IMG/VR virus record: IMGVR_UViG_2671181094_000006
Source of the DNA: a virus
Taxonomy: Duplodnaviria > Heunggongvirae > Uroviricota > Caudoviricetes
DNA: 18,188 bases
Reading direction: 5' to 3' (one strand)
Each line of letters opens with the position of its first letter. Positions within the stretch are counted from its first letter, which is position 1. The notes beneath the pieces are model-generated. The model was not told the DNA's origin. It worked only from the letters and a program-made list of their open reading frames with translations, and did no database searches. Below, in pieces: positions 1,548 through 16,961 of the stretch. Both the position numbers and the translations under genes were made by a program.

Positions 1548-1907
1548 ATGAGACTAACCAGCCGCAAAAAGACGATACTCAGCTACTTCGAACCGGATAA
1601 CCGCGACTGGGTGACGGGTGAGATCGGCGCACCTCCCCTTGATGTATCCGGCGTGGCGTACCTGCTGTATGGGACAGGCCTCGAAGACAACCGGCACTGG
1701 CTCGAATCCACCAGACGAACGCTGGAAGCAATGGTGAAAGATGGGTTGCTGGAGAGGTACCGGAGCAGGGAGGCGCGGAGTATCGTTATGGGCGGCGAGA
1801 CGACCGCTACCGTTGTCCGTTACGGCCTGCCGGGTACCGTTTCAGTGGTACGCGATACGGGAGGTGCAGACGGCACGATAGAAGGCGAATATGTGCGGGT
1901 CGTTTAA
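1548..1907 (+). CDS. conserved hypothetical protein, paralog A1 (119 aa), possible winged-helix-like regulator
   Basis: MRLTSRKKTILSYFEPDNRDWVTGEIGAPPLDVSGVAYLLYG... aligns along its whole length with the 5930-6289 product (MRMTSRKKEILSYFEPDNRDWVTGEIGAPPFDVSGVAYLLHG...). Start and upstream region are conserved between the two copies. Confidence 0.7.
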   Translation: MRLTSRKKTILSYFEPDNRDWVTGEIGAPPLDVSGVAYLLYGTGLEDNRHWLESTRRTLEAMVKDGLLERYRSREARSIVMGGETTATVVRYGLPGTVSVVRDTGGADGTIEGEYVRVV

Positions 1908-2095
1908 CGACGTGGATTATCTGGCCTCTTCCACTGGTAGGCTGGTGCCGTCATCCTCCGGCGGTGCCGTTCTTTAGCAGCGAGCGTTCCCGCAACCCTG
2001 CAACGTAACTCCAGCATATCGGTGGCATTCAGCTCATTCCCCTGCAGGCGGGCCAGCTCTTCAATTACCGCCTCGATTTTCTTCTGTTTTAACAC
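1904..2095 (-). CDS. small hypothetical protein A2 (63 aa, GTG start) with C-terminal APAYQWKRP...RR motif
   Basis: Convergent with A1, with the stops overlapping by 4 nt. The C-terminal motif is shared with the 6945-7130 product (RAPAYQWKKPAPRR). AGGAA lies 8 nt upstream of the GTG. Confidence 0.5.
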   Translation of the reverse strand: MLKQKKIEAVIEELARLQGNELNATDMLELRCRVAGTLAAKERHRRRMTAPAYQWKRPDNPRR

Positions 2096-2201
2096 GCTAT
2101 ATCTTCCTGCTCTATAGGCTCACCGGCTACGCCCTGAGCATCGTTATAAAAAGCCAGCCCCGGAGGGCTGGAATAACAGGAGCCCGCTGGCACACTTTGC
2201 T

Positions 2202-2789
2202 TTAATCGGTATCGTCGGCCAGGGCATACAGCAACGAAGGGATCACTCTCCGCATGGCTGTTTCTTCGGTTTCATCGCTCATGAGAGTCAGGGTGTAATC
2301 CCGGCACTCGTAAATCACATCATATGCAGACAGGCCGAACGCGCCGCCCGCAATGATCTGCCCAATTTCAACATCTGGCGTTTCAACAATCGACAGCCGG
2401 TAGCCGCCGAACGTCACAGGAGGGTTATAAGGCCCTTCGCTTACAAACAGCTCTACGGCCTTTGCAGCAACCTGGGCTCGTTCGTCCGGGTCCACCCCGG
2501 ACACCTTACCGGCACCTGACACCATGATGCGCTTAATCTCCGCAACACTCATTTCCACCAGCGTATACCCCTGCACCTCACCAGCTGGAGCAGGCTTGGT
2601 TTTACCCCTGGCATTCTTCGTACGCGGGTCACTGGCGCTGCGGTATCGTGCCAGATAAGTATCACAGGCCTCCTGGTCAATCTTCCCGTCAACCCGCGCC
2701 GGAAATCCTTCATGACTCTCCCAGTTATACAGTGCCTGCCGGCTCATTCCGGCATGTTTTGCGTACTGGCTGACGCTCATTAGTGACAT
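2202..2789 (-). CDS. HTH DNA-binding protein, phage Nu1-like (small-terminase-like N-terminus) / packaging-associated candidate
   Basis: N-terminus VSQYAKHAGMSRQALYNWESHEGFP resembles the lambda gpNu1 winged-HTH pattern (KKQLADIFGASIRTIQNWQEQGMP). AGGAG lies 7 nt upstream of ATG 2789. The gene sits beside a dense TGTCAA repeat array. Confidence 0.6.
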   Translation of the reverse strand: MSLMSVSQYAKHAGMSRQALYNWESHEGFPARVDGKIDQEACDTYLARYRSASDPRTKNARGKTKPAPAGEVQGYTLVEMSVAEIKRIMVSGAGKVSGVDPDERAQVAAKAVELFVSEGPYNPPVTFGGYRLSIVETPDVEIGQIIAGGAFGLSAYDVIYECRDYTLTLMSDETEETAMRRVIPSLLYALADDTD

Positions 2790-2825
2790 AATTTTTCTCC
2801 TGCCTCATTGTCACCGGCTGGCCAG

Positions 2826-3040
2826 TGTGTCAACCCGCCGGCGGGAAACTGTCAATCAAACGTCAAGGGATCAACCGCTTGACACTTTTTTCTGTCAACT
2901 TGACACTTTTCGGGCTGAAAGTGTCAATCAAACTGTCAATCAAAACTTTCACGAATTCCCCTGCATCACGCGCCGCCTCTGGACCTTAACAACCTGACAA
3001 CAAAAAAGTGTCAAGTGTAAAGTGTCAATCAAATTGAAAA
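2826..3040. repeat. array of TGTCAA / TTGACA motifs (four copies of TGTCAATCAAA, several GTGTCAA/TTGACAC, palindrome TGTCAAnTTGACA, 12-bp palindrome CCCGCCGGCGGG); candidate protein-binding (cosB-like or operator) region
   Basis: Read directly from the sequence in the 350-bp non-coding gap between the tfa stop (3138) and the Nu1-like gene start (2789). Confidence 0.6.
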
Positions 3041-3137
3041 CCTGCAGCTACAAAAACACTGCGGCGCGCAATGCCCGTGCCTTACAAAAGTCTCAGGAAG
3101 GACCCATTTTTTCTGAGGGCCATTCCATAGTTATCAC

Positions 3138-3563
3138 TTAATGAACTTCCGGCATCACAGGCCATTCAATATCTGGGGCATCATCAGGGTTAACACGACT
3201 GAGCAGAACGGAGTATTTTTCCCAGTGTTCCAGTCGCGTTTTTTCATCCAAGGTAGCCATTCCGTATTTCACAGCACGCGCTAAAGGGACGATAACGTCC
3301 TCAGCCTTTGTACGTTGCCGCTCTTTTTCAGCCCCAGCCAGCCTGGATAACTGTGCTTTGGTCTGTGGAGGTACATCGACCCACGAGGGCAAGCCATCAG
3401 CCCCTACCCCCCTTTGCTTACCTTCTGGTGGAACCCTGGTGAACTCGTGAAAAACGTTATCACTGACTGCTATAAGGTCCGCTGGTAGAGAATTGTTGTC
3501 CCGATAAGCTGGTAATAATTCATCAGGGTAAAAACACGCCGTTGACGCACTAAAATGATACAT
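3138..3563 (-). CDS. tail fibre assembly protein (Tfa-like chaperone)
   Basis: Start MYHFSASTACFYPDE and C-terminus HWEKYSVLLSRVNPDDAPDIEWPVMPEV match the conserved ends of phage Tfa chaperones (...W.KYR.LL.RVD...APDIEWP..P). Its ATG at 3563 follows the upstream TAG at 3566-3568 closely. Confidence 0.7.
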   Translation of the reverse strand: MYHFSASTACFYPDELLPAYRDNNSLPADLIAVSDNVFHEFTRVPPEGKQRGVGADGLPSWVDVPPQTKAQLSRLAGAEKERQRTKAEDVIVPLARAVKYGMATLDEKTRLEHWEKYSVLLSRVNPDDAPDIEWPVMPEVH

Positions 3564-3565
3564 GA

Positions 3566-4099
3566 CTATTCCCCTATAGCTAACCATCCAAAATTATCTG
3601 CATTACCCGAACTGCCGCTGATCCAGCCATATGCACGGAAACCGGAATTGGAATCATTGGTTACGGACACGTAACGATTTCCATCTGCGTACTTCGTAGC
3701 AACAATAGCAATAGCCCGCTTAGGAAAAGGTATCGGATACTGAACATTACCTGATGGTGAATTAATAGTGGCAGTTCCCATTTGAACAATAATATTTTTC
3801 TTTTCACCTGATGGTGTTCGGGTAGGAATAATACAGTAACCCTGTGAAGTAAGGGCACCTACGATGGGTTCAGATAGAAGGGCGGTGATCCTCAACTCAT
3901 CAATAACTTCGTTTAACTGACCATCATTTTCAGGCTCAAGCTGGCGGCCAGAACCCTCTACCACGCCCACCATCTCACGCTGCCAGGTATTAAAAATATC
4001 GGCAACAAGAATTGTTGGTGATACCCCATTAGCAACATTACCTTGTGTAAATTCCCCATTACTATCAGCAGTATCAGTGACTGAACTTATCTTACGCAT
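3566..4099 (-). CDS. tail-fibre-tip-like protein (177 aa), too short for a full fibre
   Basis: Directly upstream of and coupled to tfa, which is the usual fibre-chaperone arrangement. The C-terminal half is Gly/Ser/Asn-rich and looks beta-rich (...GWISGSSGNADNFGWLAIGE). The call is mainly positional. Confidence 0.45.
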   Translation of the reverse strand: MRKISSVTDTADSNGEFTQGNVANGVSPTILVADIFNTWQREMVGVVEGSGRQLEPENDGQLNEVIDELRITALLSEPIVGALTSQGYCIIPTRTPSGEKKNIIVQMGTATINSPSGNVQYPIPFPKRAIAIVATKYADGNRYVSVTNDSNSGFRAYGWISGSSGNADNFGWLAIGE

Positions 4100-4127: not shown

Positions 4128-4586
4128 CTATATAGAAAGCGTATCTGCCATACTCACCGGCTCGATATACTTCTCAAGCGCTAACAGAGCGGCGTTAAAA
4201 CCAGCACGATAGCCGTTTGTGTCACCGTTAATCATGCTGTGTTGAAATGCCGCCATGTTCTGGTCTTCGGCATCAAGGAACTCCCAGCCAGGATAAACTT
4301 TCTCCATAGCCCGCCGGGTAAAACGACTGAGCTGGCGAGCGCTGCCTTTTAGTCTGGCAATAGCCTTCTGATGTGGGATCCCTTCCGCGATAAGATGAAA
4401 TGCCTGTATCGGATTTTGTTTTGCCGCTTTGCTCACCGCTATCAGATGCGCATCAGAATGGGGGCATTCAGGGAGTTCCTCTTCTTCAAGCGATTGCTGA
4501 AGCTGGTGCATACGCTGCATACGGCGCCCGGAAAAGCCATATGCATGCGCATCAGGTTGCTGCTTGTTGAGGTGCTGAAAGTTCAT
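4128..4586 (-). CDS. hypothetical protein, paralog of the 4607-5290 product (start taken at MNFQHLNK)
   Basis: Shares N-terminus (MxFxHL) and the central block WEF.D.E...NGY.A...AL.AL.K..EP with the upstream gene. GGAG lies about 9 nt upstream of ATG 4586. Confidence 0.6.
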   Translation of the reverse strand: MNFQHLNKQQPDAHAYGFSGRRMQRMHQLQQSLEEEELPECPHSDAHLIAVSKAAKQNPIQAFHLIAEGIPHQKAIARLKGSARQLSRFTRRAMEKVYPGWEFLDAEDQNMAAFQHSMINGDTNGYRAGFNAALLALEKYIEPVSMADTLSI

Positions 4587-4606
4587 AACGCTCATCTCCG
4601 CAGCTC

Positions 4607-5290
4607 TCAGAGAGGAACCTGCGATTTTAGGAGTTCGGCTTCTCGTGCCGGCCCTTCAATCTTGCCATTCACCCGACGGGTATCCCCCGGCAGGCTCACA
4701 CCAGATGCCCGGATACGATCGTTACGGCGTGCAGCAGCCTGCGCGACCTCTTCCCGGTACTCTTCGTCAGCCTTACGGCGAGCATTCACATTCTGAGGTG
4801 ACATAGGGTCATAGTCGTTTTGCATCTTAGATGCCTTGCTGGCTAATGCCTTAATCTCGTCTTCTGTCAGAGGCTCTTCCATCTTCTTCAGCGCCTTCAG
4901 AGCGCTACTCTGGGCAGCAGAGTAACCATTTGCATCACGGTTCTGCGTTGAAAACGTTAGCGCCGAGCGAGCTTTCTCTTCGTCATCCTGAAATTCCCAG
5001 GTCGGGTCATTCTCTTCCATAAACTTTTGGGTAAACACAGAAAGCGCCATCGGCGACGATGCCAGTTGCAGCTTTATTTTCTTCGAAGAAAGTTCCGTTT
5101 CCTTCAGCAAACGAACCGCCAGAACCGGGTTATTTTTTGCCTCCGGGGAAACCGCGACATTGTGGCCGCGACTGTGCTGCTTAGGTCTGGCGATCCGGGC
5201 GTCGTCACTGTCCAGTTTCAGTGGCACATTCCCGTTATCAGACTCGCCTTTCGTTTTGGTTTTGCCTGACAGATGCGAGAAATCAAACAT
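4607..5290 (-). CDS. hypothetical protein, longer paralog with Lys/Glu-rich C-terminal extension (start taken at MFDFSHLSGK; the ORF track extends to 5383)
   Basis: Paralogy with 4128-4586 supports the internal start at 5290 (GAGGAA upstream). The alternative start at 5383 also has a GAGGAAA RBS. Confidence 0.55.
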   Translation of the reverse strand: MFDFSHLSGKTKTKGESDNGNVPLKLDSDDARIARPKQHSRGHNVAVSPEAKNNPVLAVRLLKETELSSKKIKLQLASSPMALSVFTQKFMEENDPTWEFQDDEEKARSALTFSTQNRDANGYSAAQSSALKALKKMEEPLTEDEIKALASKASKMQNDYDPMSPQNVNARRKADEEYREEVAQAAARRNDRIRASGVSLPGDTRRVNGKIEGPAREAELLKSQVPL

Positions 5291-5327
5291 GGATGGGTTT
5301 TCCTCAGATAGTTGGGGCTGTTTTTTC

Positions 5328-5528
5328 TTATCTTTCGTACCGAACGCTCTTAGCGCCCATGCGGGTAACGTCATTAACGGCATGGCATGCTTTCCTCTGG
5401 TTGGCGATTATCCGGCGGAGCCACATGAGTTTTTTCTTCTGCTTTCTGAACAGGCGCTCTCTCTTCGCCGCGGCAAACCATTCCGGTAACACCCAGCTTG
5501 TTTTGCTCCTGCACTCCTGGCACGGCAT
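5328..5528 (-). CDS. small basic hypothetical protein (66 aa)
   Basis: Its ATG overlaps the stop of the upstream 58-aa gene as TAATG, suggesting translational coupling. No motif recognised. Confidence 0.35.
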   Translation of the reverse strand: MPCQECRSKTSWVLPEWFAAAKRERLFRKQKKKLMWLRRIIANQRKACHAVNDVTRMGAKSVRYER

Positions 5529-5929: not shown

Positions 5930-6289
5930 ATGAGAATGACCAGCCGCAAAAAAGAGATACTCAGCTACTTTGAACCGGATAACCGCGATTGGGTAACAGG
6001 TGAGATTGGTGCGCCGCCGTTCGATGTGTCGGGTGTGGCCTACCTGCTTCATGGCATGGGATCATTCGGTAAACGCCACCAGCTCGAATCAACCCGGCGT
6101 ACGCTCGAAAGCATGGTTGCCGGTGGACTGCTTGAGCGAATGACAGTGTATGAATCCCGTCAGGTACGGCGCGGCGGTGAAACCAGCGCAACAGTCGTGC
6201 GCTACGGTTTACCGGGACAGTGTGCCGTTGTGCGAGATAGTGGCGGCGCTGATAACGCAATACCAGGTGAATACATGCGGGTCAGTTAA
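5930..6289 (+). CDS. conserved hypothetical protein, paralog B1 (119 aa)
   Basis: Full-length similarity to the 1548-1907 product; about 80% nucleotide identity over the first 130 nt by eye. Confidence 0.7.
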   Translation: MRMTSRKKEILSYFEPDNRDWVTGEIGAPPFDVSGVAYLLHGMGSFGKRHQLESTRRTLESMVAGGLLERMTVYESRQVRRGGETSATVVRYGLPGQCAVVRDSGGADNAIPGEYMRVS

Positions 6290-6824
6290 GAGCCTGCAAT
6301 CTGTCGTTGATGCGGCTCAGGTCGTAAACCCGGCGTTCAATATCCAGCATCAGGAAATTGTGGATCTCGGCCTGCTCAGGATTATCAGACTCTCTGGCCT
6401 GTAATAGCAATTCATTGTATCCATGCAAGCCGCCTGAGTTTTCCGCCGGGGTGGTGCCTTTCCCACGCAGGCAGCTAATGGGCTGATTACTCGTATCGTG
6501 TGTTTGCTTCTCCAGCACAATGACGCAATCCCACCAGTCGCCAAAGTCATACGTGTAAACCAGCTTGTCACCCTCATTCTGGAGCGCTGCCCATAGTGGT
6601 GTGATTGCCGCGTTACCCATGCTTTCACCCTCACCCCATACGCGATACTCGCTACCTAGATCACCTTTACGGCCTTTCTCGAACATATACAGATGTTCGT
6701 CATTCCAGCCAAAAGCCAACTGGATCACCGCGTGAAGTTCACTAAAGGGGATTTGCTCTGGAACCAGCACACGCCGCCATATTGGTGGTTTGCTGTCTCG
6801 GATGGTTATCTTTAGCTGGTACAT
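6282..6824 (-). CDS. pRiA4b ORF-3-like family protein (start taken at MYQLKITIRDSKPPIWRR)
   Basis: The N-terminal signature YQLKITIRDSKPPIWRRVLVP...LHAVIQLAFGWNDEHLYMF matches my recollection of the PRiA4b ORF-3-like domain. AGGA-containing RBS upstream of ATG 6824. Stop overlaps the B1 stop by 8 nt. Confidence 0.6.
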   Translation of the reverse strand: MYQLKITIRDSKPPIWRRVLVPEQIPFSELHAVIQLAFGWNDEHLYMFEKGRKGDLGSEYRVWGEGESMGNAAITPLWAALQNEGDKLVYTYDFGDWWDCVIVLEKQTHDTSNQPISCLRGKGTTPAENSGGLHGYNELLLQARESDNPEQAEIHNFLMLDIERRVYDLSRINDRLQALN

Positions 6825-6944
6825 GCAAATCCTGAATAAATGCGAATCGGAAGGATAACGATACTGACGCACTCACAATTCTGTAAAGGTGAATAAAGGT
6901 AATTTGCTTAATACGCATAAGTTACATGTGGAATAATCCCATAT

Positions 6945-9283: not shown

Positions 9284-9545
9284 TGGTGGTTCAGGTGGTT
9301 CAGTGGTTCAGTACCCCTCTAGGCCGCGCCATCTCTGGGTTTTGCTGAACCACCTTTTAAATTTATCTGGTGGTTCAGTCGCCCTTCTTGGTGGTTCACT
9401 GCCAGCCAGTGAAAATAATCCGTTTCTCTCTGGTGGTTCAAAATACCCGTTTGGTGGTTCAGTGGTGGTTCACTTTCTTACAAAAAAACATTATAAATCA
9501 ATAACAATTACTTACTGAACCACTGAACCACCTGAACCACCACAA
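9284..9545. repeat. iteron array, putative satellite origin of replication (about 12 copies of GGTGGTTCA(G/C) in both orientations, flanked by A/T-rich stretches)
   Basis: Read directly, for example tggtggttcaggtggttcagtggttcag and ctgaaccactgaaccacctgaaccacc. Lies immediately downstream of the primase-helicase gene, analogous to the P4 ori/crr iterons. Confidence 0.7.
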
Positions 9546-9567: not shown

Positions 9568-12345
9568 TTATTGCTCTGGCTGGCTTTCCTCCCCATCCGG
9601 CAGGAATTGCAAAACGTAAACGTTAATCTGCCTCCCCTGAATGCGCGGGCTTTTCCTCTGAAATTTTTTTCCGTCTGCCGAAGGGGTAAGCATCCCCGAT
9701 TCTTTCAGGACGCGGGCCACCTGCTGCCTGTTAAACCCCTTAGCAATATCCTTATCGAAAGTGTCGGGGAACGTGTAAAACGTTATCGGTGAATCGTCAT
9801 GATTTCCGCGCTGCCTGTATCCAGCCAGATTATGAATCGGCAGGCTGGCGGGGTCGTAAGGCAGCGGCGCGAATCGACTCAGGCCATAGGCATTTAAAAA
9901 TGCCTCCGCCTGCTCGATGATCTGCTGGTGCTCTTTGTTCCCCGTGCCGAACTCTTTTAGCCATGCGTTATAGGCGTGCTGTATCGCATCCCGGCACGTT
10001 TGAGCATCCCAGCCAGTAACCACGCCACCCATCAGTAAAGCGGCCTCCAGAATGGCAAATCTTGCCCCTACACGGTGAACCTGTTCCCCATAGTCGGCAG
10101 GAATTAGACTGCGCCAGCGGGCCTCACACTCACGAACGGCATCAATCGCCTGTTGCTGGTGGTCTGAAAGCCATCTGATCCACTCCCTCCCGGCAGCGCC
10201 ATGATGGTTCTGGTAAGCGTCTTTCAGCGCGTCGGCGTGGTCTCTCCCTGTCTGGTACTCATGAAAGCGCACCGCCTTACTCAGCGGGATATTCAGCAGT
10301 CGCACCAGTTGCCCCGCTTTTGTCTTGCGTCCTGCGGTGGAGATGAACGTTTCTAAATCCATTTCCCCGGTGCTGATTGCCACGGTGCGCCAGCGTTTCA
10401 GATCCCGGTTGCCTCCTTCCTTTGCTCCCTGCAATTTCCCCACGCCGTTAAACAGGGCATAGGCAGACTGAGCAACGCTTATCGGGTCTGCGCCCTGTCC
10501 GACTTCATCCAGTGGCATCAGCCCGTCATTGTGGGCGGCGGCCTCGTTTATCAGCCCCAGCGCCGTTCCGTACCACGTCAGGCGCAAGGCATCAGGGTTG
10601 CCATAAAGACTGCTCGCCACGTTCTGCGTGGTTGTTTTCCCGGCGCTCGATTGCTCGTAAAAATGAATCCCGAAGCCGTCACGCTCCGCCAGCCCGATTA
10701 ACGGTGCTGCAAGTGCGGCGGCAATGCCTGTCATCATCGCGTAGTTACCGTATGCCAGACGCGCAACACTCTTACGCCAGCTCTCTGAGGTTCCCGCCAC
10801 GGTGTACCCGGCAGCGGCAGAACTGCGGCCACTGAATAAAACGGGTTGTGCAGGTGCGCCGATAATCTCCCCGTCCGGCATGATGTATGCCCCGCACTGC
10901 CAGCCAGTAGCGTGAGCAACACGCCACAATTCACGTGAGCCGCTACGCTGTAACCAGTCAGCCAGAATCGCCCGCAAGCTGCTTTTGGTGGTGACGTTAA
11001 CCCCGCCCGCTTTCAGGGTGCGCCAGCCTTCGCGCTCCCCGATATCAGCCAGGGGGATAGCCGCTGTTGTCGGTATGCCTGCGCCAAAGGCCAGCCAGCG
11101 TAATATCAGATACTGATCCTTGTCGTCCCGCCCGGTGCCGATAACGTCCATCGGTGAGGCCAGCCAGCTTTCATTGTTGATAATCTCGCCGCTTTCCTTG
11201 TCCACTTTAGGCGTGATCCAGTAAACGCCATCTTTGCGGCTCTCAATGCGGGGTTTTAGCGGGTCTTTCTCTGGCTGGTCAGTTTTACCGCCCTCAATGG
11301 CCTGTAGTTGTGGTTTCACGCATTCCCCCTGCGGCTGGTACATCGAATCATTAAACGCAGCCGTAGCGACTTCCAGCCCGTGTTGCTGGTGGTAGTCGTT
11401 CCAGTCAGCTTTGCTGTCAGTCGGTGGCAGCGATACCCAGCCAGCCACGGATAAAGCCGCTTTCTCTGCGGCCTCCTTCCCGATGTTGGTGGCTCCGGTT
11501 TCGGAGGCTGCTGTAGGGTGGTCGTTATCTGCGGCGATAATAATTTGCGACTGCGGGTGTTTCCGGCGCATTACTCCGGCAACGTGGATCAGGTTCCCGG
11601 CGTCAATTGCCGCCACTGTGAGCGCGTCAGGCCGCATCTGGTGAACGGACAGGGCGGTAGCCAGCCCCTCGGCAATCACGACGCTTTGAGGCCGTTCCAG
11701 CGCGTTTACGGCGTAATATGCCCCGCGCTTTGCCGATCCCTTAATGAGTCGCTTTTCTCCCTGCGGGGTGATGGTCTGCGCGGCTGTGACTGCGCCGGAT
11801 TCATCCACCAGCTCCAGCAATAACGAACCATCGGGCATAAGCGGGTATTTAAACCCGGTCAGCCCTTTTGATTGCAGGTACTCAGATTCTCCCTGTATGG
11901 ATCTCAGGCGCATTCCGGTATACAGACGGGCAAACGTAGCCCTTCGCTGATCTGCGTCCTCTGCTGCCTGTTTCTGGCGCTCCTGCTCACGCTGCTGGCG
12001 GTCTGCGGCTAACTGCCTCTGTCTCTGGCTGGCAGCGTCTGGTGCTGATTCTGCGGCCCGGTAATCAATACCCAGCACATCAGCGGCAAGCTGTGCCGCC
12101 TCCGTGGTGTCGCAGTTGTTCACCTTCTTAATCAGGTCTAAGCCATCGCCCGCGCCGCACTGGTTGCAGATAAAGCTGCCGCGCCCGTTGTCGTCGAATC
12201 TGAAACGGTCTTTCCCACCACATGCAGGGCAGGGGGCATGGCGGCGCGATGAATCAGGAACGTCGATAGACAATCCGGCCAGCACATAAGGCCATCGCCC
12301 TGCTGCGGCGCTGGTCACTTCGCGGATAAGGTCGATATTACGCAT
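9568..12345 (-). CDS. primase-helicase (P4 alpha-like: N-terminal zinc ribbon, TOPRIM primase, C-terminal P-loop NTPase)
   Basis: 925 aa. Zinc ribbon CPACGGKDRFRF...CNQCG, TOPRIM acidic motifs (VVIAEGLATALS ... IIIAADND), Walker A-like SSAGKTT. GGGAGG RBS upstream of ATG 12345. Confidence 0.9.
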   Translation of the reverse strand: MRNIDLIREVTSAAAGRWPYVLAGLSIDVPDSSRRHAPCPACGGKDRFRFDDNGRGSFICNQCGAGDGLDLIKKVNNCDTTEAAQLAADVLGIDYRAAESAPDAASQRQRQLAADRQQREQERQKQAAEDADQRRATFARLYTGMRLRSIQGESEYLQSKGLTGFKYPLMPDGSLLLELVDESGAVTAAQTITPQGEKRLIKGSAKRGAYYAVNALERPQSVVIAEGLATALSVHQMRPDALTVAAIDAGNLIHVAGVMRRKHPQSQIIIAADNDHPTAASETGATNIGKEAAEKAALSVAGWVSLPPTDSKADWNDYHQQHGLEVATAAFNDSMYQPQGECVKPQLQAIEGGKTDQPEKDPLKPRIESRKDGVYWITPKVDKESGEIINNESWLASPMDVIGTGRDDKDQYLILRWLAFGAGIPTTAAIPLADIGEREGWRTLKAGGVNVTTKSSLRAILADWLQRSGSRELWRVAHATGWQCGAYIMPDGEIIGAPAQPVLFSGRSSAAAGYTVAGTSESWRKSVARLAYGNYAMMTGIAAALAAPLIGLAERDGFGIHFYEQSSAGKTTTQNVASSLYGNPDALRLTWYGTALGLINEAAAHNDGLMPLDEVGQGADPISVAQSAYALFNGVGKLQGAKEGGNRDLKRWRTVAISTGEMDLETFISTAGRKTKAGQLVRLLNIPLSKAVRFHEYQTGRDHADALKDAYQNHHGAAGREWIRWLSDHQQQAIDAVRECEARWRSLIPADYGEQVHRVGARFAILEAALLMGGVVTGWDAQTCRDAIQHAYNAWLKEFGTGNKEHQQIIEQAEAFLNAYGLSRFAPLPYDPASLPIHNLAGYRQRGNHDDSPITFYTFPDTFDKDIAKGFNRQQVARVLKESGMLTPSADGKKFQRKSPRIQGRQINVYVLQFLPDGEESQPEQ

Positions 12346-16869: not shown

Positions 16870-16961
16870 ATCGTCACCCTCAACGCCCCTAAATAACTTG
16901 CGGGCCAGGCGGGTAGGGTTTCCCGCTTTTCGGTTGGCCGACCTAGACCCGCAATATCAGT

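Follow-up and report, generated by a model that had tools for sequence, protein, structure and literature searches.

Satellites that redirect the terminase of a helper phage drive high-frequency island transfer among Enterobacterales, and the only characterized Gram-negative solution for cos (cohesive-end) packaging is the Rpp protein working with a lambda-type cos; the DNA site of Rpp has never been mapped. Rpp is known from EcCICFT073-type phage-inducible chromosomal islands (PICIs; PMC6739421, PMC9026076), and PICI cos sites have been reviewed as having no recognizable repeated sites (PMC9026076). Among other satellites (see PMC6092414), Staphylococcus aureus pathogenicity islands (SaPIs) package from a pac site through a terminase small subunit (TerS) of their own that is homologous to TerS in full, whereas P4 (P2 cos) and SaPIbov5 carry the whole helper cos and no specificity protein. 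Here we describe positions 2202–3105 of an 18,188-nucleotide stretch of Caudoviricetes DNA (IMG/VR record IMGVR_UViG_2671181094_000006, referred to as the window), in which an array of short repeats lies upstream of a minus-strand gene whose product has 195 aa. We consider it very likely that the array is the cos, or DNA-packaging, site of a phage satellite, and with a probability of about 0.75 the region is a satellite packaging module in which a TerS-type helix-turn-helix (HTH) protein, acting on a private cosB, directs the helper terminase to the island. Such a module probably lets the island divert the helper packaging enzyme onto its own DNA. It resembles the SaPIs in a TerS-like subunit of its own and P4 and SaPIbov5 in the use of a helper cos, and differs from them in combining a helper-type cosN with a satellite-private cosB and a chimeric protein. 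It would be an undescribed variant of a known trick, a satellite cos with its own cosB and specificity factor; no account of the 195-aa family or of a repeat-bearing satellite cosB was found in the literature, subscription-only papers being outside the search.

The array is contained in a 348-bp non-coding gap (2790–3137) located 5′ of the 195-aa gene (2202–2789, minus strand, ATG start). An earlier note on the window, made from the letters alone, had placed the repeats in a 215-bp non-coding stretch; the repeats are there, but the gap is longer and the array itself spans about 207 bp (2827–3033). The array comprises ten 7-mer sites of the form TT(G/T)ACA(C/G) on the gene strand, eight gene-oriented and two inverted, and the 7-mer is often extended to TTTGATTGACAC. 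The four copies of TGTCAATCAAA, the inverted TTGACAC copies and the 12-bp GC palindrome that the note had listed were all recovered. The window has exactly four copies of the unit TGTCAATCAAA (2850, 2922, 2934, and 3023), always within the array, and TTGACAC is read on the plus strand at 2879 and 2900, with CTGTCAACTTGACAC at 2891–2905. Nine of the ten TGTCAA hexamers found on both strands of the window fall within the 200 bp of 2828–3028, compared with a maximum of 4 per 200 bp in 2000 shuffles. The 12-mer TTTGATTGACAC, allowing up to 2 mismatches, has six matches in the window, a number reached in 0 of 200 shuffles, and the four best matches are all inside the array.

The sites are arranged in two blocks. 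The proximal cosB (3008–3028, minus strand) consists of three tandem 7-mers, TTGACAC-TTTACAC-TTGACAC, at bp 47–67 from the first base of the predicted cohesive end, a position equivalent to that of lambda R3. The distal cosB (2827–2939, minus strand) holds seven TTGACA(C/G) sites and three of the four TGTCAATCAAA units, with plus-strand starts at 2827, 2849, 2892, 2921, and 2933 for the gene-oriented sites and at 2879 and 2900 for the inverted ones. Measured from the cohesive end, the array sites occupy bp 47–67, 136–154, 169–196, 220–226, and 242–248. Comparison of 12 loci of the TTGACA-bearing G class from 7 genera gives a phylogenetic footprint in which the 7-mers are invariant and the spacers and flanks drift. 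The GC palindrome, CCCGCCGGCGGG (2834–2845), is positioned between the last two sites; the relatives keep a GC-rich stretch there and not the palindrome, and because of this lack of conservation it was rejected as a functional element and is probably incidental. Inspection by eye of the 68 bp that separate the two blocks showed no integration host factor (IHF) consensus, no formal scan having been run. A TTGTT-N6-8-TTGTTAA pattern in the spacer (2948–3007) is conserved in most G-class loci while the remaining spacer drifts; by analogy it might be a bending-protein site corresponding to lambda I1, though by eye it is unlike the IHF consensus.

The most informative element is a cosN/cosQ pair at 3062–3105, about 30 bp past the array. 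A nearby cosN-like nick site, which the earlier note had proposed as a check, is found at 3063–3074 on the minus strand, beyond the end coordinate of 3040 used in that note. The predicted 12-nt 5′ cohesive end reads GCATTGCGCGCC on the minus strand and lies within the 17-mer ACGGGCATTGCGCGCCG (3062–3078); each of the two sequences has one exact occurrence in the window. A cosQ-like GGGTCCT (3099–3105, minus strand) is positioned 24 nt upstream of the predicted nick and is conserved in all satellite and phage loci. The same 7-mer is the lambda cosQ. The lambda junction (NC_001416) reads GGGTCCT, 23 nt, GGGCGGCGACCT, CGCGGGTTTTCGCTA, and the gene strand of the window reads AAAAATGGGTCCT, 24 nt, GCATTGCGCGCC, CGCAGTGTTTTTGTAGCT..TTTGATTGACAC. 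The sequence features of a lambda-type cos, namely cosN, cosQ at a fixed spacing and cosB sites between cosN and the gene, are all seen at this locus. A TerS protein search led to the Serratia phage vB_SspM_BZS1, whose annotated cosL positions 1–12 are identical to 3063–3074 at 12 of 12 bases; the ends of this phage were determined by PhageTerm on virion reads and by PCR across the prophage cos (PMC7556043), and its right end reads ...ATGGGTCCTTCCCTGCACTTTTGTAAAGCACGG.

Phages and prophages with the same cosN show where TerS sites are placed. The 17-mer ACGGGCATTGCGCGCCG is present in at least 120 IMG/VR contigs, mostly of 40–47 kb, upstream of TerS-TerL (TerL, terminase large subunit), and where enough downstream sequence is available TerS is followed by a long TerL-like open reading frame (ORF) in 58 of 60 contigs. 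The tandem 7-mers of these 60 contigs belong to a TGTCCCA class (40 contigs), a GGTAACA class (15), or others (5). Both main classes have two tandem 7-mers at about bp 47–62, counted from the cohesive end, followed in the TGTCCCA class by a distal mixed-orientation cluster; R3 lies at bp 50–65 in lambda and at bp 48–60 in N15 (PMC9026076). The satellite array occupies the same place relative to cosN as these phage TerS-site arrays. The likeness to the BZS1-like, TGTCCCA and GGTAACA phages includes an identical or near-identical cosN and cosQ, the cosB layout and homologous first 70 or so residues of the protein. The 7-mers have another sequence, the proteins are unrelated over their C-terminal two thirds, and the phage gene, unlike the satellite gene, is followed by TerL, gpW and portal genes. 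Positions 3030–3112 of the window also match about 54 E. coli genomes at about 90% identity, and these matches are intergenic, upstream of an operon encoding a TerS-like protein, TerL, gpW and portal. A DNA search of 2790–3140 against 50,697 deposited phage genomes gave no match; linear records divide cos between both ends.

The 195-aa protein is predicted by AlphaFold2 (pLDDT 76) to consist of a winged HTH (residues 1–47), a disordered basic linker (52–74), and a mixed helix/strand domain (78–195). The N-terminal domain matches phrog_57, "terminase small subunit," over residues 1–65 with an E value of 7.9e-8, and BLASTP against TerS sequences from phages sharing this cosN gives 35–45% identity over residues 1 to about 70, with a shared DPRTxNAK motif. 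Identity to the TerS of the L002 prophage is 31% across 49 aa, and the alignments to phage TerS end at about residue 70–94. The closest structural matches of the DNA-binding domain are the TerS and Rpp DNA-binding domains. On these alignments the N-terminal winged HTH is homologous to the TerS of same-cosN phages. A TerS-like character, for which the earlier note had proposed a check, is limited to the first 70 or so residues; the protein as a whole does not have a TerS fold, and the similarity to lambda Nu1 itself is marginal (hhalign, 35 columns, probability 6%). The hhalign comparison with RppA covers only 26 HTH columns (probability 39%), and a search of PDB with the family profile returned no Rpp chain, RppC included, at E ≤ 10. 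A protein encoded on a contig from a metagenome-assembled genome (P0118; L021, 2418–3068) has an N-terminal domain 56% identical to that of the satellite family, a normal TerS C-terminal region, and an upstream cosQ/cosN variant with mixed TTTACAC, TTAACAC, and TTGACAG sites; from its sequence it looks like the type of bona fide TerS that gave the satellite its DNA-binding domain and cosB.

The register of the array and the identity of the DNA-binding domain bear on an explanation also raised in the earlier note, that the array is only an operator cluster. The 195-aa protein would then be a MerR/AlpA-like transcription factor controlling its own promoter or adjacent genes, with a cos nearby by coincidence. 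The final site, TTGACAC at 2827–2833, is identical to the sigma-70 −35 consensus and precedes the ATG by about 40 bp, and one homologue is named "MerR regulator" in a JGI record. However, a scan for promoters gave none of sigma-70-like type on the strand of the gene, ten sites over 200 bp are atypical of a simple operator, and the sequence homologues of the domain are the TerS proteins of same-cosN phages. The register of the array to cosN is moreover fixed in every locus, with the first sites at bp 47–67, and the phage TerS sites are placed alike, so that we regard a purely regulatory array as unlikely.

That the repeats serve an excisionase-like recombination directionality factor as architectural sites near the island end is suggested by the presence of Xis, RdfS, TorI, and AlpA-family excisionases among the structural matches, by a match to phrog_66, "excisionase and transcriptional regulator" (E 0.0014), and by the location of the gene in the last 2–3 kb of the island at the opposite end from int. 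The sites are fixed to cosN rather than to an att site, however, and the gene is at no constant distance from the island end: it is last in L145 and followed by others in the window and in L001. A protein of 195 aa with a large extra domain is also unlike such factors, and an AlpA already adjoins int in the island, all of which makes this explanation highly improbable.

The C-terminal domain forms a narrow family by itself. Sequence searches of PDB with the protein and with the family profile gave no meaningful match, and Foldseek against PDB and BFVD matched the HTH only and returned nothing for the C-terminal domain, which does not superpose on RppC outside the DNA-binding domain. A search with this domain of 1.84 billion representatives found only 20 proteins, all of the two-domain type or fragments, with one exception in which a short stretch of a repetitive 1049-aa protein was matched. 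Neither NCBIfam nor PADLOC had a match to the protein or to its neighbors, and Pfam gave only a sub-threshold CI-repressor HTH match. Of the properties of a TerS, the protein has the N-terminal DNA-binding domain and lacks the oligomerization and TerL-binding regions and the following TerL gene; no TerL-like ORF is present after the gene or elsewhere in the window, judged from the ORF list. Like Rpp of the EcCICFT073-type PICIs, it is a TerS-like winged HTH protein encoded directly 3′ of a satellite cos, in an island of the same type (int, alpA, pri-rep, PerC), where the satellite cosQ and cosN match the helper, cosB differs, and helper-terminase redirection is presumed. Unlike the Rpp proteins, which have 135–153 aa and an all-helical (α3–α6) dimerization domain, it has 195 aa and an α/β C-terminal domain unmatched in PDB and BFVD, and it shows no homology to RppA, RppB, or RppC over its length. 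The DNA differs as well: the EcCICFT073 cosN is the lambda-type GGGCGGCGACCT in place of GCATTGCGCGCC, and PICI cos sites known so far are described as free of repeated R sequences, with an rpp start at about bp 102, in contrast to the ten sites and the gene start about 285 bp from the cohesive end seen here. RppA of EcCICFT073 itself was located at L158:2660–3094, beside a lambda-type cos without repeats. With lambda gpNu1 and cosB (R3-I1-R2-R1) the locus shares the order cosQ, cosN, repeated TerS sites, and gene, a first site about 50 bp from the nick, and an N-terminal winged HTH. In contrast to gpNu1, there is no central coiled-coil, no TerL-binding C terminus, and no following TerL gene, and in contrast to the lambda cosB, with its three R sites of 16 bp, the array has ten sites of 7 bp and, by eye, no identified IHF site. 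From these comparisons the module is predicted to act like Rpp/cos-PICI and lambda Nu1/cosB but fails the defining features of both protein families.

The protein family comprises 118 clusters, all unnamed and without a Pfam domain, from Klebsiella, Raoultella, Escherichia, Citrobacter, Yersinia, Serratia, Morganella, Pectobacterium, Providencia, Rahnella, Salmonella, Hafnia, Brenneria, and others. Full-length homologues have 186–215 aa, many invariant C-terminal domain residues and intact arrays, and the order cosQ, cosN, array, gene is maintained in 27 loci. The recognition helix covaries perfectly with the repeat across these 27 related loci. In the 18 loci of the G class the helix reads ...MSRQALY... 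and is accompanied by 6–10 TTGACA and zero TTCACA, whereas in the 9 loci of the C class it reads ...SRR(A/S)FY... and is accompanied by 5–8 TTCACA and zero TTGACA. This two-class covariation of helix and DNA predicts which residues read which base. The L007 (G class) and L011 (C class) proteins are 90% identical overall, and the substitutions that go with the class, K11A/E, Q18R, and L20F, are located in helices 1–2 of the HTH. The repeat classes are mosaic relative to the C-terminal domain, for which the identity to the window is 93–94% in the C-class loci L004 and L005 (Raoultella) and 69–71% in the G-class loci L007 and L009 (Yersinia/Morganella); this mosaicism argues for at least two independent class-switch events. 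Both classes are present in one genome of Yersinia pekkanenii. A remote match to the C-terminal domain profile, P0135 (E 9e-4), is encoded in an AlpA/primase/DUF927 island (L145) in which the arrangement is kept, with cosQ/cosN, three TTTACA sites, and then the P0135 gene. The earlier proposal of a cosB-like packaging site thus finds support in the adjacent cosN/cosQ, the phage-equivalent position, the TerS homology, and the helix-repeat covariation in 27 loci. The L007 island copy is Yersinia-like, with 71% protein identity and a G-class array, in a record of Pseudomonas lundensis strain I31, and its protein is identical to P0028, named Yersinia enterocolitica in NCBI records, which suggests that the L007 assembly is contaminated or mislabeled.

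The conservation of the family also speaks to the idea that the locus is what is left of a decaying phage terminase region, in which a cos and a chimeric or truncated TerS were captured and are now functionless. This would fit an ORF without a TerL gene after it, a C-terminal part unrelated to TerS, and neighboring tail-fiber genes that resemble captured phage fragments. Full-length homologues with intact arrays are nevertheless kept in at least 15 Enterobacterales genera, more distant two-domain relatives exist outside the group, and the coordinated switching of helix and repeat implies ongoing selection. We consider a remnant very unlikely.

In the proposed packaging module, the minus strand would be read in the order cosQ, helper-type cosN, private cosB of ten 7-mers, and the gene for the 195-aa protein. 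The winged HTH, derived from a helper-type TerS, would bind TTGACAC-type 7-mers, which we infer from the covariation and the positional homology. The C-terminal domain would recruit the helper terminase, and TerL would nick the satellite cosN and package satellite DNA, the island cosN presumably being cut and packaged by the helper enzyme. As the helper TerS would read TGTCCCA or GGTAACA, the satellite protein would be the sole route to recognition of satellite DNA and would not recognize phage DNA. Recruitment through a complex with the helper TerS, as for Rpp, which binds that subunit and blocks packaging of the helper, is plausible at somewhat short of even odds; direct binding of TerL, with the protein as a TerS surrogate, is a more tentative possibility, and another route takes the remaining share. 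The TerL N termini of the two helper classes were compared for a target of the C-terminal domain and are too divergent to inform.

Several points weigh against the module. By structure and profile comparisons the C-terminal domain is unlike the oligomerization and TerL-binding part of TerS and unlike the helical Rpp dimerization domain, and its link to terminase is therefore conjectural. Because the 27 covariation loci are related to one another, the number of independent events they represent is smaller than 27. Sites close to the promoter may have a second role beside packaging, as operators. The window contains no helper phage, and the island (about 17.6 kb or more) falls far short of the headful of a lambda-like phage, multimers or small capsids being conceivable ways to accommodate its size.

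If the assignment is correct, the locus represents a second, structurally different solution to terminase redirection, with a TerS-derived DNA-binding domain joined to a novel domain and an explicit multi-site cosB, which would work with a different and widespread cos family of the BZS1-like type. It also proposes a function for "hypothetical proteins" without a Pfam or NCBIfam model, from Klebsiella to Yersinia and Pectobacterium. A more far-reaching joint reading, which we hold to be doubtful as a whole, is that the C-terminal domain is a new terminase-hijacking adaptor placed on a stolen TerS DNA-binding domain and that the satellites form private packaging-specificity groups. These groups, TTGACAC/Gln18-Leu20, TTCACAC/Arg18-Phe20, and TTTACAC, could share helpers with the same cosN and an unrelated cosB, and they can coexist in one genome since Y. 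pekkanenii carries both main classes. Were this true, one or two recognition-helix residues would reprogram which DNA the helper terminase packages, providing a natural, engineerable cos-packaging specificity switch and "packaging incompatibility groups" among satellites.

The surrounding island is consistent with a satellite, as the earlier note had supposed. Its genes encode an integrase, AlpA, a Bro-N protein, a Zn-ribbon/Toprim/DUF927 primase-helicase, a single-stranded DNA-binding protein, and PerC, and the only virion-type genes found in the window are of the tail-fiber type. By its gene content the island is a PICI-type phage satellite, because int, alpA, the primase-helicase, and its own origin iterons are present; it is also of satellite size, with the pri-rep genes adjacent to the origin and no full virion gene set, and related IMG/VR contigs are 15.7–18.1 kb long. 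The iterons, in which GGTGGTTCAG is repeated at least 11 times and in both orientations (9284–9542), are located directly downstream of the primase-helicase gene (9568–12345) and mark the probable replication origin of the island. The TTGACAC repeats, being short, direct, and intergenic in a replicating island, could themselves be taken for origin iterons. With a separate and typical iteron field of GGTGGTTCAG at 9284–9542 beside the primase, the TTGACAC array is not the origin; it is 6 kb from that field and tied to cos, and of the explanations considered here an origin is the least probable. An Rfam int-alpA RNA motif (RF02996, 62.6 bits) is present at 16886–16953 on the minus strand, between the integrase gene and the adjacent gene.

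Candidate helpers are found in hosts of the island. The island is present in 4 complete E. coli genomes, 3 of which also have a prophage of the matching TerL type, a type that is rare overall (59 of 5426 genomes). Strain 2022CK-00450 has a module 96% identical to the one described here, and its prophage carries the same cosQ/cosN followed by TGTCCCA repeats, TerS, TerL, gpW, and portal, and is the sole prophage for which cosN was confirmed.

Further features flank the module. A terminator-like hairpin with a T-run (2154–2171, minus strand) is positioned directly 3′ of the 195-aa gene. It is followed by a 63-aa ORF (1904–2095, minus strand) that matches phrog_7271 (E 7e-25) and has a basic AAKERHRRRM..P.YQWK.P.PRR tail; its homologues are syntenic in L003, L005, L018, and L019, downstream of the specificity gene in several genera, and it is a possible accessory or partner of the 195-aa protein. 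On the other side of the cos, 3138–4099 (minus strand) is a variable cargo slot with virion-type genes, located between a conserved 155-aa gene and the cos. In the window the slot encodes a 177-aa mini tail fiber, with a tail-fiber N terminus and a gp53-like C terminus, and a lambda gpK-family tail-fiber assembly protein. The relatives compared (L019, 4525–5388; L003, 3825–5654; L018, 3193–5658) have a Gly-rich 287-aa fiber or a protein of about 600 aa with or without a 216-aa protein, and the E. coli relative L001 is without fiber genes. A satellite-borne tail fiber could change the host range of hijacked particles.

Two adjacent paralogues of 155 and 258 aa (4128–4595 and 4607–5383, minus strand), with no Pfam, PHROG, or PADLOC assignment, share the motif ...W(E/D)F(L/Q)D..(D/E)....A......N.D.NGY.A...A(L/I)..L.K..EP. 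In every related satellite examined the pair is syntenic just 5′ of the cargo slot and cos, and it may belong to the packaging or interference module. A second pair of paralogous proteins, of 131 and 119 aa (1512–1907 and 5930–6289, plus strand), is encoded on the strand opposite the island operon, has no family match, and shares RKK.ILSYFEPDNRDWVTGEIGAPP.DVSGVAYLL. In L007 and L019 homologues of these proteins are encoded just after the 195-aa gene, on its downstream side, and one of the two paralogues overlaps the 3′ end of the PRiA4_ORF3 gene (6282–6872).

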